Shown piece by piece: positions 3,569 to 9,786 of a DNA stretch of 64,000 nt. Positions within the stretch are counted from its first letter, which is position 1. Each line of letters begins with the position of its first letter. The notes under the pieces are model-generated. The model was not told the DNA's origin and did not search any database. It worked only from the letters and a program-made list of their open reading frames with translations. The stretch is from IMG/VR virus record IMGVR_UViG_3300031160_000001; one strand, 5' to 3'. The stretch is from a virus. The translations under genes were made by a program, and so were the position numbers.

Positions 3569-3625
3569 TTATGCACCACCCATTAAAAGATCTGAAATGG
3601 CACCTGCTTTAATTACGTTCTCCAT
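3569..3625 (-). pseudogene. 18-aa micro-ORF, probable C-terminal remnant of a replaced gene
   Basis: MENVIKAGAISDLLMGGA with a strong GGAGGTG RBS, at the edge of the GC-rich cassette. Confidence 0.45.
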
Positions 3626-3654
3626 GATGGCACCTCCAAAAATATAGGCCCCGC

Positions 3655-3912
3655 CTATTCGGCGGAGCCTGCATCAGGCTCGGGCTCAGCAACCGTCGGC
3701 TCCTCGCCCCATACTGCGAAAATCGCAGACTTGTATGGCTCCGGCACTTCGTCCTGTACCTGCTGTCGTCCGGATGAGCTGTTTACATAGGCGCGACGCC
3801 ACGGATCGCCAATGGGATATTCGACTCCATCGACTTCGACGTACTGCTGTTTCTTAATACTCACCCCGTCCGGCGTAAGCATGTCCAGCGAATACCTTTC
3901 GATAATATCCAT
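3655..3912 (-). CDS. Tail-fibre-associated small protein (putative chaperone)
   Basis: 85-aa ORF directly after the tail fibre gene, with RBS. Confidence 0.6.
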   Translation of the reverse strand: MDIIERYSLDMLTPDGVSIKKQQYVEVDGVEYPIGDPWRRAYVNSSSGRQQVQDEVPEPYKSAIFAVWGEEPTVAEPEPDAGSAE

Positions 3913-3925
3913 ATCACTTCACCCC

Positions 3926-5122
3926 TTATATATAATACATCCCGTGAGCAGACAAACGGGTACTATTGGAAAACACATTATCCCCAACTGGAGCGCCGTC
4001 TGTATCATCCCCGTTTGCGTTCAAAACCATATAATTTGCACCGTACGCACCCTGAAGCGAAACTAATCTGTATTGAGACGCCAACGAAATGTTTTTGAAT
4101 TCCCCCACAGGAGTGAATGGTACCATTCCTCCGGCAATATTGTAAGGAAGTCCGTAAATGGCCCCCAATCCTGTAGCCGATCCTTTACTTGAAAGTTGGA
4201 TCTCGAATGCCCAGTAGACAACATTACCGATTCTTGTGTAACGCCCTACCCTCTTTGAGTATGTGATCCCCGAATTGTTTCCTCCGAACCGCAGGTCCGG
4301 CGTCCACGATCCGGTTTCATACGGGAGATTTCCGGCGTGCCAGATGTTGTTTGTCCCTAGCTGCGCTGCCACACCATCATTGGTCAGCTTAAGTAAATCT
4401 CTAATCCAATTTCCTGCTGCGTCGCGGAGTTGGACATAAAACGCACTGTTATCATGGAGGATATTGATTCTATTGTTTATGTCAGTGTCGATTAGCCAAA
4501 CGGCTGGCCACTTGGATTCTATAAACAAATCGCGCGTTAACGTCCCGCCGCTGCTAGTGATTAATTCAGCCCAAGATGTCCACGTGTCCCCGCCGTTGAA
4601 TGATGACCTTGTGTACACGCGATTTTCATAGGGGTCGCCTCCCCAAAACGCGTACCAGACTTGACGTATGTGTTGGCCATCCTGATTGTAAACGAGTAGC
4701 ACGCCCATCGTAGGGACCGGAGCATTTACAGCTCCCTCTGCAACGCCGTACATACCGGTGTCTTTTAAGTTATTTACATCCCCGTTATAGGGCGGTACTT
4801 TGCTGCGACCGTTATCTCCTGTCAACTTAAACCGTTGCCAGTTCACAGTTTCCGCCACATGTGCATCAAACTCCGTCTTAGTCGCCTGCTTTACGTTATC
4901 GACATTGCCTAATCCGACATCACCTTTTCCGAGTGATACCGCGCCAGTTTTCCCATTTACACTCGTAACGGGAGGCGCAGGAATTTGAGCTATCTTTTGA
5001 TCCGTATAATCCTTAGCATTTTGCTCCGCGATATCAGCCTTCGCTTGCGAGTCAACTACATTCTCTATTTGAACTAGTTGATTATCTTTAACTATTTTTG
5101 AGTCCTGCTTTATGATTGCCAT
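3926..5122 (-). CDS. Tail fibre / receptor-binding protein
   Basis: VTSVNGKTGAV repeat, knob-like segment (VNNLKDTGMY..NAPV..GVLLV), C-terminal YETGSWTP..GRYTRIGNVV domain typical of phage fibres. Confidence 0.8.
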   Translation of the reverse strand: MAIIKQDSKIVKDNQLVQIENVVDSQAKADIAEQNAKDYTDQKIAQIPAPPVTSVNGKTGAVSLGKGDVGLGNVDNVKQATKTEFDAHVAETVNWQRFKLTGDNGRSKVPPYNGDVNNLKDTGMYGVAEGAVNAPVPTMGVLLVYNQDGQHIRQVWYAFWGGDPYENRVYTRSSFNGGDTWTSWAELITSSGGTLTRDLFIESKWPAVWLIDTDINNRINILHDNSAFYVQLRDAAGNWIRDLLKLTNDGVAAQLGTNNIWHAGNLPYETGSWTPDLRFGGNNSGITYSKRVGRYTRIGNVVYWAFEIQLSSKGSATGLGAIYGLPYNIAGGMVPFTPVGEFKNISLASQYRLVSLQGAYGANYMVLNANGDDTDGAPVGDNVFSNSTRLSAHGMYYI

Positions 5123-5176
5123 TAAACCCCACCTTTCTTTTCTTGGGCTAATTTATCTTGTATTATCGAAACTTCC

Positions 5177-5194
5177 TATAAGTAAAAAGAGAGC
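5177..5194 (-). terminator. Intrinsic terminator after the XerD-like gene
   Basis: gagagcc-cgaa-ggctctc hairpin with a U-run on the minus strand. Confidence 0.7.
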
Positions 5195-5204
5195 CCGAAG
5201 GCTC

Positions 5205-6044
5205 TCAAAAATATTTTCGATATATTTCGCGCCGACGTTCTCCGCTCAGCTGAGCATAGAGTTTTGTCGTATCGATCTTGGCGTGTCCGAGAAATGATTG
5301 TATGACCTCGAGCGGAGCGCCGTTGTTAAGCAAGTGTGTCGCATATGAGTGTCTTAGACTGTGTGGGAAAACATTGACCTCAATGCCTGCGCGTTTGGCG
5401 ATACGCTTGATAATGTATCGCATCTGAGCGATTGACATCCGCCTCGGAGCTCGTTCGGTAACGAACAACGCGATGTCTGTGTCTCGTCTACTCCGGAGAT
5501 AACGTCTGAGTAGTATAGCGCACCTTGTAGTAAAATAAACCTCGCGTTCCTTATCCCCTTTGCCCCGGACAATGATACTGCGCGATTCAAAGTTTATTGA
5601 GTTTCGGTTAAGCTGCACAATCTCTCCGATCCGGCAACCAGTCGCGTAAAAGATCTCGATGAGTGCTGCTTCAAGGTACGAGGTTGCAGCGACTCGCAGT
5701 TCCTCGATCACATCCTCCGATAACGCCTTCGGGATACGATGCCCCTGCTTCGGTTCCTTAAGCTTCGCGGCTGGATTGCGCTGTGTCAGTCCTTCATCAT
5801 GCGCATATCGGAATAGCGACTTGAGAAAACGCACACGATGACCGATGCTCGCTGGCTTCAGGTGCCGCGTCGATTCAACAAGATAGCCTTTTAGCATTTC
5901 GTAGGTGATGGTTTGCACATCGACATCGCCGATATGCCGGACTAGAAGTTGCAACTGGAGATGATAGGCTTTCAGGGTATGCGAAGAATACCCCTCTAGC
6001 CTCTTGTCTGCCTCGTATGCAGACCAGAGTGAGGATAGTAACAT
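5205..6044 (-). CDS. XerC/XerD-like tyrosine recombinase (279 aa)
   Basis: ATGCRIGE, VRGKGDKER, FPHSLRHSYATHLL, LGHAKIDTTKLY: all catalytic residues present; start moved to ATG 6044 because of an AAGGAG RBS. Confidence 0.93.
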   Translation of the reverse strand: MLLSSLWSAYEADKRLEGYSSHTLKAYHLQLQLLVRHIGDVDVQTITYEMLKGYLVESTRHLKPASIGHRVRFLKSLFRYAHDEGLTQRNPAAKLKEPKQGHRIPKALSEDVIEELRVAATSYLEAALIEIFYATGCRIGEIVQLNRNSINFESRSIIVRGKGDKEREVYFTTRCAILLRRYLRSRRDTDIALFVTERAPRRMSIAQMRYIIKRIAKRAGIEVNVFPHSLRHSYATHLLNNGAPLEVIQSFLGHAKIDTTKLYAQLSGERRREIYRKYF

Positions 6045-6086
6045 GATATAACCAACTCCTTGGCATTGGTATTTGCCCTTGGGATT

Positions 6087-6154
6087 GTGGTACAGGCAAG
6101 CGCCCAAGGAACGCCTTTCATCCGAGTGATCAGTTCGGACTAGCCTGCATCCAC
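6087..6154 (-). ncRNA. Candidate structured RNA (three-way junction) in the recombinase leader
   Basis: P1 UGCAGGC/GCCUGUA, P2 UCCGA/UCGGA, P3 AGGCGU/GCGCUU; lies just downstream of an extended -10. Confidence 0.55.
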
Positions 6155-6155
6155 A

Positions 6156-6164
6156 ATTATACCA
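6156..6164 (-). promoter_or_regulatory. Extended -10 promoter for the recombinase
   Basis: TGGTATAAT (TG-n-TATAAT) on the minus strand. Confidence 0.65.
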
Positions 6165-6215
6165 TGCGCTTCCTCAGTTTTCCATAATCTAGAACTTCGT
6201 TAGTTTAATTACAAA

Positions 6216-7292
6216 TCACGGAATAAAAGCGGAGCGGAACCCGAGTGTCGGGCTCACGACCGAGCGAGTGTAGCCCAAGTTGAGCGCGAAAACGCCCGCA
6301 CTGGAGCCATTGCGCCAGTAGCCGCCGCGAGCCGCCAGTCGTTCTCCCCCGGCAATAAACCAGTACGCATCGTTCCCGTAATCCGCAGAACCTGAGCTGC
6401 TAGTAGTAGCCGGAATCGCAAGTGCTGACCAGTCCATGCTCGGCGTATTCGGGATCGCACCTTCGCGCATCGTAAGAATACGGTTTCCGCTGCTCATGCC
6501 GGTAGTAATATTCACACCTGTATTTACCCAATCCGATTCATTATCTGTGAAATTGTTGTCAATCATCACATAGGCGGCGCCGTCAATGATTTTCAGTCCT
6601 TGCACCCATTCCCATACGTTACCGTTCAAGTCGTAAATCCCTGCCGGTGTGTTATCGTGTGCCCAAGAGGCGGGTCCCGATCCGGTAGCGACACGGCCCG
6701 TCTTGCCAGCCTCAGAATCAAAATATGTTTCTTTGCCTCGTTCATACGAGGCGGAAATGTCTGCGCCATAGTTATTGTTGCCTCGTGGTTGGAAACCGTT
6801 AGCTTTGCACCAGAGGGCAATCACAGCCCACTCGGCATTGGTCATAAGGTGCCAGCCTGCTCCTTTCGCCGTGCAGTAGCCCTTTGCCGCATCGTAATTG
6901 ATAGAAGCCCTCGGGTCTTGCATCGGCAAGCTAATTGCGCGTTCACTGCCTGATGCACCAACTACAATGTTCTGATATTTAGAGATAAAAATTTCTGGTT
7001 TAATCACGCCATTCACGATAAACGCAGGATGCGGTGTAGTTGGTGCGCCCGGTATAAGCTCGTCAAGCGTTTTAACTGTAAACTTGACCATGATACTAGG
7101 GTTGCCAAAGTCATCATATAGTACGGTGTTTTTACCAAAGGTTATATCTTCAAGACGTTTTTGCCAGTCACGTTGTATATCTTCGTTCGTCGTTACACCG
7201 TTCGAAAAAAAGTCTCTCGTGATCTGCAGTTCAAGCTCTCTTGCTTTGACTGCAATCTCGCGCGAAAAATACTTTCCGCTTACATACTTCAT
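6216..7292 (-). CDS. Mtd-like / FGE-sulfatase C-type-lectin-fold protein (DGR target type), copy 1
   Basis: FISKYQN, GWHLMTNAEWAVIAL, DLNGNVWEW and C-terminal RGGYW...LGFRSAFIP, the architecture of DGR target proteins. Confidence 0.85.
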   Translation of the reverse strand: MKYVSGKYFSREIAVKARELELQITRDFFSNGVTTNEDIQRDWQKRLEDITFGKNTVLYDDFGNPSIMVKFTVKTLDELIPGAPTTPHPAFIVNGVIKPEIFISKYQNIVVGASGSERAISLPMQDPRASINYDAAKGYCTAKGAGWHLMTNAEWAVIALWCKANGFQPRGNNNYGADISASYERGKETYFDSEAGKTGRVATGSGPASWAHDNTPAGIYDLNGNVWEWVQGLKIIDGAAYVMIDNNFTDNESDWVNTGVNITTGMSSGNRILTMREGAIPNTPSMDWSALAIPATTSSSGSADYGNDAYWFIAGGERLAARGGYWRNGSSAGVFALNLGYTRSVVSPTLGFRSAFIP

Positions 7293-7340
7293 ACGATTTC
7301 ACCGCCTTCGATAGTAGTAACTTCCAACACGGGAACAAAA

Positions 7341-8405
7341 TCACGGAATAAAAGCGGAGCGGAAGCCAACGTTCGAACGCAAGTTCCACCGAGGGTCGTT
7401 CAGGTTGAGCGCGAACACCCCGGCAGCAGCGACACCCTGCCAGTCGCCGCCGCGAATCGGCAGCCGTTCTCCCGCTACATTAAACCAATATCCGTCGTTA
7501 CCGTAATCCGCAGAACCTGAGCTGCTGGTAGTGGCCGGAATCGCAAGTGCTGACCAGTCCATGCTCGGCGTATTTGGGATAGCACCTTCGCGCATCGTCA
7601 GAATTCGATGCCCGCTGGTCATGCCGGCAGTGATATTCACCCCGGTATTTACCCATGCCGATTCGGGATCAGCAAAGTTGTTGTCGATCATGACATGAGC
7701 AATACTGTCGATGATTTTCAGTCCTTGTACCCACTCCCAGACATTTCCGCACAAATCAGCGATACCGTCTAGGGTTCCATCGTGGTTCCAGGATGCTGGG
7801 CCGGAACTGGTCAGAGTGCGATGATAACTACCGGAGGTCGTCTTCACGCCGCGTTCATAAGGTGCGTCAGAAGAAGCCCCGTTACTTGTGTTTCCTCGGG
7901 GCATTTTGCCTACCTTTCGGCACCACAACGCAATGGCCGCCCATTCGGCGTTGGTCATGAGGTGCCAGCCTGTACCTTTGTTAGCACAGTATTGACGAGC
8001 ATTATCAAAACTAATTGAAGCCCGCGGGTCTGTCATCGGCAAGCTAATTGCGCGTTCACTGCCTGATGCACCAACCACAATATTTTGGTACTTTGATATA
8101 AAAATCTCTGGTTTCATTTTGCCGTTCACAATAAAAGCAGGATGCGGACTGGTCGGCGCACCTGGTATAAGCTCGTCAAGTGTTTTAACTGTAAACTTTA
8201 CCATCACGCTAGGATTTCCTAAGTCGTCATAGATAACTGTATTTTTTCCGAAAGTCAAGTCTTCAAGACGTTTTTGCCAGTCTCGCTGTGTATCAACACT
8301 CGTCGTAGGCCCTTTCGTGAAAAAGTCGCGAGCAAGCTGCATCTCTAACTCACGGCCTTTTACAGCGATCTCGCGCGAAAAATACTTACCGTTCACATAT
8401 TTCAT
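7341..8405 (-). CDS. Mtd-like / FGE-sulfatase C-type-lectin-fold protein (DGR target type), copy 2
   Basis: Tandem paralogue; same motifs, C-terminal RGGDW...VGFRSAFIP; last 24 nt identical to copy 1. Confidence 0.85.
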   Translation of the reverse strand: MKYVNGKYFSREIAVKGRELEMQLARDFFTKGPTTSVDTQRDWQKRLEDLTFGKNTVIYDDLGNPSVMVKFTVKTLDELIPGAPTSPHPAFIVNGKMKPEIFISKYQNIVVGASGSERAISLPMTDPRASISFDNARQYCANKGTGWHLMTNAEWAAIALWCRKVGKMPRGNTSNGASSDAPYERGVKTTSGSYHRTLTSSGPASWNHDGTLDGIADLCGNVWEWVQGLKIIDSIAHVMIDNNFADPESAWVNTGVNITAGMTSGHRILTMREGAIPNTPSMDWSALAIPATTSSSGSADYGNDGYWFNVAGERLPIRGGDWQGVAAAGVFALNLNDPRWNLRSNVGFRSAFIP

Positions 8406-8617
8406 GTTTCTTCGCCGCCTTCATTGGTCTCTGGTTCAGGTACAGGAAAAAGCTCCGAAAAATTCCTCCGCAAGTCAGCTTCAAAGATATGCACATACCG
8501 TTCTGCCGTTTGTCTATCTCCTTTTACTTCTGTTTCTCCTTGCAAGTTTACGCCTTCGTCAGAAAAATCGACTTTTATTCTTGTCACGCCGTTCAACTCT
8601 TCAAACAAAGCAATCAT
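8402..8617 (-). CDS. Hypothetical protein (tail-tip module)
   Basis: 71-aa ORF with 4-bp overlaps to both neighbours. Confidence 0.6.
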   Translation of the reverse strand: MIALFEELNGVTRIKVDFSDEGVNLQGETEVKGDRQTAERYVHIFEADLRRNFSELFPVPEPETNEGGEET

Positions 8618-9012
8618 ATCTCCATCACCGCCACCTCTACTGAGTTTGCACTTTCAGATACCGCAAAAATCTGCACGACTACGCTAGGATTAAAGTTAAA
8701 TTCAATGATCCCTCCCGGTTCGACCGGGAATCCAGTGGCTGCTGTAACTGTTGACGATCCTATGCGGATCCGATACTGTGTTGACTCGTTTTTGACGATG
8801 AGATACCGTCTGTTTTCTTTTCGCGATGCACCTGCGAAAATTTCCGCCGCTGTTGCCGTCACAGTTTTAACACCTGTCACAGGTGCGGCATCAACTGTAT
8901 CTATACTCCCCGTTAGTTTGACACCCTCTGAATACGTCCCGTCCCCATTATCTATCATTTTGATTTTAATAGAGTCGTTACCGACCCCGTATCTTGTGCT
9001 TGTATCAGCCAT
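8614..9012 (-). CDS. Hypothetical beta-rich virion-associated protein
   Basis: 132 aa, RBS GAGGTG, operonic; contains the KLTGS motif. Confidence 0.6.
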   Translation of the reverse strand: MADTSTRYGVGNDSIKIKMIDNGDGTYSEGVKLTGSIDTVDAAPVTGVKTVTATAAEIFAGASRKENRRYLIVKNESTQYRIRIGSSTVTAATGFPVEPGGIIEFNFNPSVVVQIFAVSESANSVEVAVMEI

Positions 9013-9023
9013 TATTAATCACC

Positions 9024-9224
9024 TCAAATTGGTAAACTTTTCAGTGGATCTGGGCAATTTTCAACAACCCAATCACCACCGATAAACTCGATGTTTTGAT
9101 CAGTAGCGTTATATCGACTTATTAGACCAAACATAGTCATTTCCGGCTCATCTTCTGTTGGAAGAAAATCATCATAAATCCCCTGCAAAATGGATATGAT
9201 TTGTTGTTTTCGTTGTTCATCCAT
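9024..9224 (-). CDS. Hypothetical protein
   Basis: 66 aa, GGAGGT RBS, operonic. Confidence 0.55.
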   Translation of the reverse strand: MDEQRKQQIISILQGIYDDFLPTEDEPEMTMFGLISRYNATDQNIEFIGGDWVVENCPDPLKSLPI

Positions 9225-9228
9225 AGTG

Positions 9229-9786
9229 TTACCTCCATACTCTCACAACTCTGATTGTAACCGTGGCTGTTTCTGAACTGTAGTTTACAACCTTAATCTG
9301 TTCATTCGATGCTGGGATTGCTACGCTTTTAGCCTCTTGTAAAGACGTGGGTTCTGTCAATCCAACATTACTTGCGAAACTAAAACCCAAAAATAACGAG
9401 ATGCATGGGTTAGATAAGTTAGAATATGCCGTTGTAACATTTTCCCTTTTAGGGTATACGCAATTCAAACTACTATAGCCGTGTGCAACATTCCAAGCTG
9501 CACCAGATCTGAACGACCAAGGCTGTTTATCACAGTTGATAAGGACATATGTTTCGTCTTCTCCCTTACCACCAATGCTTACAGGTGTGGTCTGACCTCC
9601 AGACGATGGCACAGACTGTGCATTAACAAGTGTTTCAACCTCTACTCTAGCAACCCTCTTAACCGGAATTGCTTGTGTATCTTGCACACTACTCCCCGTT
9701 AGTTCAACTTCTCCCTTAACTTTCAATGCCTTGCTTACATTATCTTTAAGCGTTCCTATAATTTCTGATAAACTAAATAAAGCCAT
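9229..9786 (-). CDS. Hypothetical virion-associated protein
   Basis: 185 aa, GAGGAG RBS; contains the ELTGS motif. Confidence 0.6.
   Translation of the reverse strand: MALFSLSEIIGTLKDNVSKALKVKGEVELTGSSVQDTQAIPVKRVARVEVETLVNAQSVPSSGGQTTPVSIGGKGEDETYVLINCDKQPWSFRSGAAWNVAHGYSSLNCVYPKRENVTTAYSNLSNPCISLFLGFSFASNVGLTEPTSLQEAKSVAIPASNEQIKVVNYSSETATVTIRVVRVWR

Follow-up and report, generated by a model that had tools for sequence, protein, structure and literature searches.

The 64,000-nucleotide (nt) stretch of viral DNA analysed here, called the window, belongs to an IMG/VR virus record (IMGVR_UViG_3300031160_000001) of 148.6 kilobases (kb). It carries a gene for a Xer-like tyrosine recombinase that is preceded by a structured RNA leader; all coordinates of the leader, its promoter and the gene are window positions read on the minus strand. 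The gene (5205..6044) encodes 279 amino acids with a Pfam Phage_integrase domain (9e-37) and ends at an intrinsic terminator-like hairpin followed by a T-run (5189..5206). When the recombinase was compared with the NCBIfam models for XerA, XerC and XerD, every score was under the cut-off. The ATG start codon (6044-6042) lies directly downstream of the leader, and the recombinase is probably the gene that the leader controls. As judged from model matches and shared architecture, the leader is a divergent member of the int-alpA RNA family (Rfam RF02996), from a branch probably belonging to phages of Firmicutes, and not a new class of RNA.

The core of the leader (6091..6149) is a three-way junction, identified by its minimum-energy fold, by covariation and by alignment to the Rfam int-alpA model. 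Helix P1 is formed by UGCAGGC (6149-6143) and GCCUGUA (6097-6091). The linker J1/2 (UA, 6142-6141) leads to helix P2, in which (G)UCCGA (6140-6135) is paired with UCGGA(U) (6125-6120) around a 9-nt loop (ACUGAUCAC, 6134-6126) holding the hexamer UGAUCA. The linker J2/3 (GAAA, 6119-6116) is followed by helix P3, composed of AGGCGU (6116-6111) and GCGCUU (6103-6098). The minimum-energy fold of positions 6087-6164 calculated with ViennaRNA was exactly this junction (-29.2 kcal/mol, z = -2.75), two of 200 shuffled sequences folded as well, and the junction was retained when the whole 131-nt leader was folded. The single-sequence folding energy is only modestly unusual; the comparative evidence is decisive. 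An initial annotation of the sequence had placed a three-way junction here, and all of its elements were found. The junction does lie upstream of the ATG as that annotation stated, but the distance of about 40 nt that it gave was too short, the end of P1 being 45-46 nt from the ATG. A hammerhead-like reading of the GAAA between stems and of CUGAUCA was rejected, as these motifs are misplaced and the ribozyme models gave no match.

Eighteen distinct leaders were obtained from other phage contigs by searching viral contigs for matches to the recombinase protein and to DNA patterns. A covariance model was built from eight leaders and recovered the remaining ones at 37-130 bits. The pattern CATGRTAT...TCATAYCATG gave mostly chance matches in viral contigs and became informative only once these had been screened against the covariance model, and four matches to a junction-core pattern (L193, L194, L196 and L197) were rejected as false positives in coding regions. 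Covariation was counted in the model-based alignment, which has 16 distinct rows. Standard pairs occupied 96.2% of the helix cells, compared with 85.7% in shuffles and 29-40% with slid partners, and changes on both sides were found in 12 of the 19 pairs; the observed values were reached by none of 500 shuffles. All six P2 pairs and three of the five P3 pairs covary, while P1 is near-invariant and its few changes are compensatory. Exceptions to pairing occur only at helix ends. The non-Watson-Crick pairs are nearly all G.U on the sense strand, which argues that selection acts on the RNA rather than on duplex DNA. In the core set, every P2 hairpin has 21 nt and every P3 hairpin 15 nt, and the junction nucleotides J1/2 UA and J2/3 GAAA(A) are near-invariant in the 18 leaders. 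The covariance analysis that had been proposed as a check thus supports the fold.

Compared with two of the related loci, L003 (2842-3003) and L112, the promoter and leader from 6205 to 6042 contain no substitutions and one indel, of 2 nt, at 6188-6189. Over all 1035 nt that match these loci, leader included, the identity is only 76.6%, so that the differences sit in the coding part. The identity of the leader points to very strong constraint, or else to recent exchange bounded by the AACTAACG site discussed below and the start codon. The same type of leader was also found upstream of a longer recombinase subfamily of 331-368 residues, which has an extra N-terminal segment and 40-44% identity to the window protein (L203, L311, L221, L276 and L028). 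Among GenBank phages, blastn with the leader gave chance matches only and tblastn with the recombinase found no relative above 35% identity. About 80 chromosomal homologues from Bacillaceae (approximately 62% identical) lack the junction and have a plain anti-Shine-Dalgarno hairpin directly behind the promoter. Since these genes still carry such a hairpin without the junction, hiding of the Shine-Dalgarno sequence (SD) is a family-wide theme.

The promoter (6156..6184) consists of a -35-like TGGAAA (6184-6179) and an extended -10 element, TGgTATAAT (6164-6156), and scored 10 of 12, with the TG, in a consensus scan. Judged by its conservation it is a real promoter of the sigma-A type. All 18 leaders have TGnTAnnnT at a constant spacing from P1, and in 10 of them it is preceded 17-18 nt upstream by TTGAC, which bears out the TG-n-TATAAT promoter originally proposed. 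The window has the best -10 box among the leaders, but it has neither TTGAC nor a LexA box. The predicted transcription start, around 6150-6148, falls on the first base of P1. In 11 of the 18 leaders (L006, L011, L198, L203, L218, L221, L276, L311, L028, L009 and L375), a LexA (Cheo) box of the Gram-positive type, differing from GAAC-N4-GTTC at no more than one position, occupies a fixed place by the -35 region, 41-52 nt upstream of P1, compared with 0.3 in shuffles. These boxes imply that the recombinase would be under SOS control in those 11 related, probably temperate, phages.

Sequences matching window positions 5000-7500 are present in many phyllosphere metagenome and metatranscriptome runs (X1-X24) and partly in compost metagenomes. 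In four phyllosphere metatranscriptome runs, contigs with the recombinase and leader had a depth of 10-31, whereas the flanking tail genes had a depth of 2-5. The deeper cover is a hint that the recombinase has its own promoter, and a weak one, as only assembled contigs were compared and DNA can occur in such libraries. Three RNA-library contigs end at 6071, and the possibility was considered that this is a processing site. It was rejected because the ends coincide with a k-mer branch in the assembly, a 30-nt overlap with a 99-nt contig (6042-6140) from a co-occurring strain. That strain, which has the same leader with another coding sequence, co-occurs in some runs. No terminator was detected between the upstream tail-fibre genes and the leader.

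To our knowledge, int-alpA has been given no function and no agreed cis or trans mode of action since the 2017 survey that introduced it, and the family is described as belonging to Proteobacteria and their phages. The survey reported 224 candidate RNAs (Weinberg et al. 2017, NAR 45:10811, PMC5737381) without treating this motif in the main text, and passages that name int-alpA in other papers add no function. An Rfam search over 2.5 kb gave no match at the leader at E values up to 10, and searching the phage record for RF02996 likewise gave none, in both cases through filtering. The int-alpA match emerged from eight homologous loci and then from a 161-nt slice of the window. The locus L006 scored 35.9 bits, just above the gathering cut-off of 35.8, and L008 scored 31.3 bits; the window (6076-6150) scored 25.4 bits in the 161-nt search (E = 0.0013), which is below the cut-off, and the six other homologues had no match at E values up to 5. 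The Rfam model aligns to the window over positions 1-71 of its 71, with all three helices as in our own fold. Its consensus consists of P1, UA, P2, GAAAA, P3 with a CCUU-type loop, and a tail, AaGG, that aligns to a purine box (box B) described below. Our own covariance model in turn placed canonical int-alpA members correctly, although with weak scores of 13-21 bits. The Rfam comparison suggested in the initial annotation has therefore shown the motif to be a catalogued one, albeit still without a characterised function. The xerDC motif named there among those to be compared was not upheld: the lead goes to STAXI, the 'XerDC integrase' RNA or single-stranded DNA motif made of tandem pseudoknot repeats (PMC2864571), and there was no Rfam match besides int-alpA.

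The window and its homologues share with canonical int-alpA RNAs an 8-base-pair (bp) P1, the J1/2 UA, a P2 hairpin, the J2/3 GAAA(A), a 5-bp P3 with a pyrimidine-rich loop and a loop-complementary purine box a few nt after P1; the canonical members also have a second box at the SD. Both are found beside integrase-family genes in the DNA of phages or prophages, here directly upstream of a gene with a Phage_integrase domain. The differences are that P2 has 6-8 bp and a palindromic loop of 7-9 nt, compared with 3-4 bp and 4-6 nt in canonical members, that J3/1 has 0-1 nt in the window and most homologues instead of a CU linker, that the boxes are about 21 nt and not about 11 nt apart, and that an outer pairing between the -10 region and the AUG is present. 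Moreover, the branch probably occurs in AT-rich phages of Firmicutes, as judged from the nearest recombinases (Bacillaceae, Paenibacillus), the backbone of the window having a guanine plus cytosine (GC) content of 30-35%. The long P2 with its palindromic loop and the outer pairing mark the branch to which the window belongs. Many canonical int-alpA RNAs (L321-L372) lie on contigs of about 16 kb ahead of small open reading frames (ORFs) that do not encode recombinases. Their P2 loops often read CGGCCA, UAGCU(A) or GACG, and 4-nt palindromes are common in them but not universal.

The P3 loop UCCUUGG (box A, 6104..6110) is an anti-SD sequence with 6-8 nt of complementarity to two boxes downstream. 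Box B (CCCAAGGG, 6076..6083), the putative decoy partner, contains CCCAAGG(G) and begins 7 nt after P1. Box C (CCAAGGA, 6063-6057) overlaps the SD AAGGAG (6061-6056), and the spacer between the two boxes is A-rich in the window. A perfect complement of 6-8 nt to the P3 loop was found at the same two fixed places in 15 of 16 leaders, with box B 7-10 nt after P1 and about 30-36 nt before the AUG, and box C 10-13 nt before the AUG. The leaders have approximately eight different P3-loop sequences, and both boxes track each of them. This three-way covariation was judged by comparing cognate with non-cognate combinations: the longest match between loop and box had a mean of 6.7 nt for cognate boxes and 3.7 nt with the boxes of leaders that have another loop. 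The complementarity of the P3 loop to the ribosome-binding site, first noted from the window alone, is thus confirmed across leaders, and box B is a second complement of the loop that had not been listed. The calculated duplex energies in the window are -12.7 kcal/mol for A:B and -12.1 kcal/mol for A:C, and the gap between the two ranges from 0.4 to 3.2 kcal/mol across leaders. Either pairing would have the standard geometry of an H-type pseudoknot, with the 5-bp P3, one nt, a 7-bp loop helix and zero nt before the 3' strand of P3. Furthermore, among 33 distinct canonical int-alpA RNAs from viral contigs, 25 have at least two downstream complements of the loop, the second just before the start codon, compared with 1.4 for shuffled loops. 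The arrangement of loop, decoy and SD is therefore a property of the whole family.

A hairpin loop that pairs beside the ribosome-binding site, forming a pseudoknot that sets translation, is also found in PK-repZ of plasmid ColIb-P9. There the pseudoknot activates translation and a separate antisense RNA blocks the pseudoknot; unlike the leader, the plasmid system has neither a decoy box nor a three-way junction. PK-repZ is named as a pseudoknot of ColIb-P9 in PMC12370729.

The hexamer UGAUCA (6127..6132) inside the P2 loop is a palindrome with a self-duplex energy of -6.4 kcal/mol and is a candidate site for a kissing dimer. A palindrome within a hairpin loop cannot pair inside the same loop. 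A 6-nt palindrome is present at the equivalent place in 15 of 18 leaders, and four different hexamers are used: UGAUCA in ten, UAGCUA in three, UCGCGA in one and UAAUUA in one. Two other leaders have AGCU only, and one has no palindrome. Self-complementarity of the loop, as originally described, is thus kept through paired substitutions, which is what selection for the pairing of two identical RNAs would give and which supports the kissing-loop idea. We infer that the P2 loop may pair two copies of the RNA as a kissing dimer. The dimerisation initiation site of human immunodeficiency virus type 1 (HIV-1) likewise has a 9-nt loop of two nt, a 6-nt palindrome and one nt, and its hexamer varies by lineage while remaining self-complementary. 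That RNA, its host and its purpose are unrelated, the dimer proposed here is inferred, and some members of the branch have a 7-nt loop or a 4-nt palindrome. A literature search on kissing or recombinase leader motifs returned nothing relevant.

An additional pairing, P0, which was absent from the initial annotation, connects the promoter with the start codon. Its 5' arm (CAUGGUAUAAUU, 6155..6166) overlaps the -10 box and its 3' arm (GGUUAUAUCAUG, 6042..6053) includes the start codon. In 15 of 16 leaders, a 12-nt segment that begins at CATG and covers the -10 box is complementary to the 12 nt that end with the AUG. The first ten positions comprise 140 Watson-Crick pairs, 15 G.U pairs, no A.C pairs and five others; compensatory changes occur at position 5 (G-C, G.U and A-U) and at position 9 (mostly G-C, with A-U in the window). 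Because the 5' arm is the -10 box itself, it is missing from transcripts started at the leader's own promoter and would be present only in those started upstream. P0 may therefore insulate the recombinase against read-through from the tail-fibre genes. A comparable principle is fold-back inhibition in IS10/Tn10, which silences only transcripts from external promoters: these contain RNA encoded ahead of the element's own start site, and it folds back onto the transposase start region. The two systems are not homologous; in the phage leader, the -10 box itself serves as the 5' arm and the gene encodes a tyrosine recombinase in a phage late operon.

We propose that the leader is a cis-acting translational gate that keeps the recombinase low, and assign a probability of roughly 0.55 to this reading. 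The sigma-A type promoter would start the transcript at the base of P1, and the RNA would fold into the three-way junction. The anti-SD loop of P3 could then pair with one or the other of two equivalent purine boxes, giving an H-type pseudoknot in each case. With the loop on the decoy, box B, the ribosome site would be free; with the loop on box C, the SD would be covered and the ribosome site blocked. As A:B and A:C are nearly equal in energy, the leader would be a gate with two states. Our preferred guess is that kissing between two leaders, through the P2 palindrome, tips the gate, so that repression would rise with the concentration of the RNA. RNA that reads through from the tail-fibre genes would not be translated, its -10 region being paired with the spacer and the AUG. 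The net effect would be a low level of recombinase synthesis tied to the gene's own promoter. A more specific version, in which two recombinase mRNAs kiss through P2 and each anti-SD loop quits its own decoy and clamps the SD of the partner, with the output per genome falling as phage copy number and transcript level rise, is a tentative one that we consider rather less probable than its opposite. Taken together, the interpretation first attached to this sequence is partly supported.

Several points weigh against the proposed gate. Where transcription starts, whether the pseudoknots and the dimer form, and how translation responds are all matters of prediction. One leader (L028) has box C and no clear box B, so that box B is not indispensable. 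In addition, the A:C helix spans only the 5' part of the SD. Three of the 18 leaders are without a 6-nt palindrome and the P2 loops of canonical int-alpA RNAs are often non-palindromic; dimerisation therefore cannot be the core mechanism of the family. The evidence for P0 is suggestive only, because both arms are conserved for other reasons, one as the -10 box and the other as the start region, and its co-variation at position 5 alone is not significant. Finally, the shuffle controls overstate independence, since the leader sequences are related.

The possibility was considered that the junction acts as an antisense RNA like c4 of phages P1 and P7 or CI of P4 (the C4 family). It would be released as a small RNA of about 60-75 nt whose P3 loop targets box C of other transcripts, either in trans or, once processed, in cis, with box B masking the loop in the precursor; as an outcome, shut-off would be delayed, or the loop sequence would determine an 'immunity' specificity. 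The architecture is alike: in c4 and CI, a small structured RNA with several helices is encoded in the leader of the transcript that it controls, a loop is complementary to repeated boxes, one of them at the ribosome-binding site, and loop and boxes covary between phages. The eight or so loop and box specificities resemble heteroimmune types, int-alpA is filed by Rfam as 'Gene; sRNA', and a palindromic P2 loop would enable a free RNA to bind a leader identical to it. The resemblance is functional only. Neither the window region nor any of the eight homologous loci matched the Rfam C4 model (RF01695) at E values up to 10, processing of the RNase P type is not evident, the contig ends at 6071 being a k-mer branch, and here both boxes are downstream and a single loop is complementary to them. 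Moreover, no second copy of the RNA was found in the 148-kb record, and candidate trans targets (CCAAGGR) are not enriched in the window, with 11 observed and 7.7 expected. We regard an antisense RNA of this kind as unlikely. An aptamer, either a riboswitch or a binding site for a protein such as the recombinase, in which binding at the junction or P2 selects box B or box C, would account for the near-invariance of J1/2 UA and J2/3 GAAA(A) across phyla and for the constant helix lengths, and an expression platform with two alternative partners is typical of riboswitches. Against this, very few unpaired nt are conserved that could form a pocket for a small molecule, both loops vary freely while the pairing rules hold, and the downstream genes differ within the family, being recombinases here and small unrelated proteins in canonical members, which does not suggest a shared metabolite. 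An aptamer thus appears improbable.

Equally doubtful is a role as a 5' stabiliser only, in which a helix at the first nucleotide guards the mRNA from decay that depends on the 5' end and pairing with the boxes adds stability without any switching. P1 does start at the predicted +1 in all leaders, and 5'-terminal helices are known to stabilise Bacillus mRNAs, but this explanation accounts neither for the duplication of the loop complement exactly at the SD across two phyla nor for the palindrome rule. The weakest explanation is that the element works as DNA, either as the core site of recombination or as an operator bound by a dimeric protein, and that the RNA fold is incidental. P2 with its palindrome does form a 21-bp dyad, the gene is that of a recombinase with a candidate site (AACTAACG) 45 nt upstream, and LexA boxes are near in relatives. 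However, three nested helices covary as an RNA junction, and the helix sequences vary freely among homologues, unlike those of a protein-binding site. The asymmetry of G.U pairs between the strands, which extends to the outer pairing with 15 G.U and no A.C, makes a DNA element highly improbable.

The recombinase lies between tail-fibre-like genes and upstream of a holin and a 543-residue ORF (1138-2769) that had been labelled as an endolysin. It is part of a GC-rich island (about 50%, at about 3600-9100) in the phage backbone of 30-35% GC, together with a 398-residue tail-fibre-like gene and two paralogues with the FGE-sulfatase fold (phrog_5302 tail protein; 6216-7292 and 7341-8405) that are 81% identical. 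A candidate recombination site (AACTAACGAAG, 6195..6205, minus strand) is found just upstream of the promoter, at the left edge of homology with related phages. The 8-mer AACTAACG occurs in 14 copies in the recombinase-bearing loci, always on the strand that is sense for the recombinase. The window has copies at 6198-6205, 8911-8918 and 9697-9704 on the minus strand, and the relatives have them in L003 (2187 and 2842), L008 (1074, 2819 and 2845), L218 (10097 and 10788), L011 (1679) and L006 (2774). One copy is usually within the upstream tail-fibre ORF (AACTAACGGGSAGTA, encoding LTGS) and another just upstream of the recombinase promoter. Homology breakpoints coincide with these sites at 6205-6209 and 8918: the similarity to L003 and L112 begins at 6209 and skips window positions 6210-9066, which contain the two FGE-sulfatase-fold tail genes and a 132-residue ORF, and the similarity to L008 begins exactly at 8918. 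The AACTAACG copies look like directly repeated recombination sites flanking cassettes for the tail-fibre tip.

The nearest cellular homologues of the recombinase (L032-L111, from chromosomes of Bacillaceae and Paenibacillus) are multi-copy, and several are on contigs only 1-2 kb long; in Priestia megaterium, two copies are separated by 7.6 kb. Upstream of each chromosomal homologue lies a palindromic site (ACTAAC-CTGCC-CGTTAGTT type) overlapping the -35 region, and in several loci this site is directly repeated every 0.5-1.7 kb, in what looks like an integron-like or IS-like array. A search for the palindromic site in the window (CTAAC-N5-9-GTTAG) found none.

With these results, the orphan Rfam family int-alpA gains a concrete candidate mechanism that can be tested by mutation, and the family is extended to AT-rich phages, probably of Firmicutes, that fall below the Rfam threshold. 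One rule, the covariation of the P3 loop with a decoy box and the SD, holds in two distant branches of int-alpA. Two further rules apply in one branch, namely a self-complementary P2 loop and a fold-back pairing that would silence read-through transcripts. In the phage studied here, the leader would guard a recombinase that is embedded in the tail-fibre module and that, if uncontrolled, could rearrange the receptor-binding genes. If the self-sensing dimer switch is true, the whole int-alpA family would be a decoy and anti-SD pseudoknot gate for genes of mobile elements, and the recombinase gated here would serve to shuffle cassettes for the tail-fibre tip, with the AACTAACG copies as its sites.

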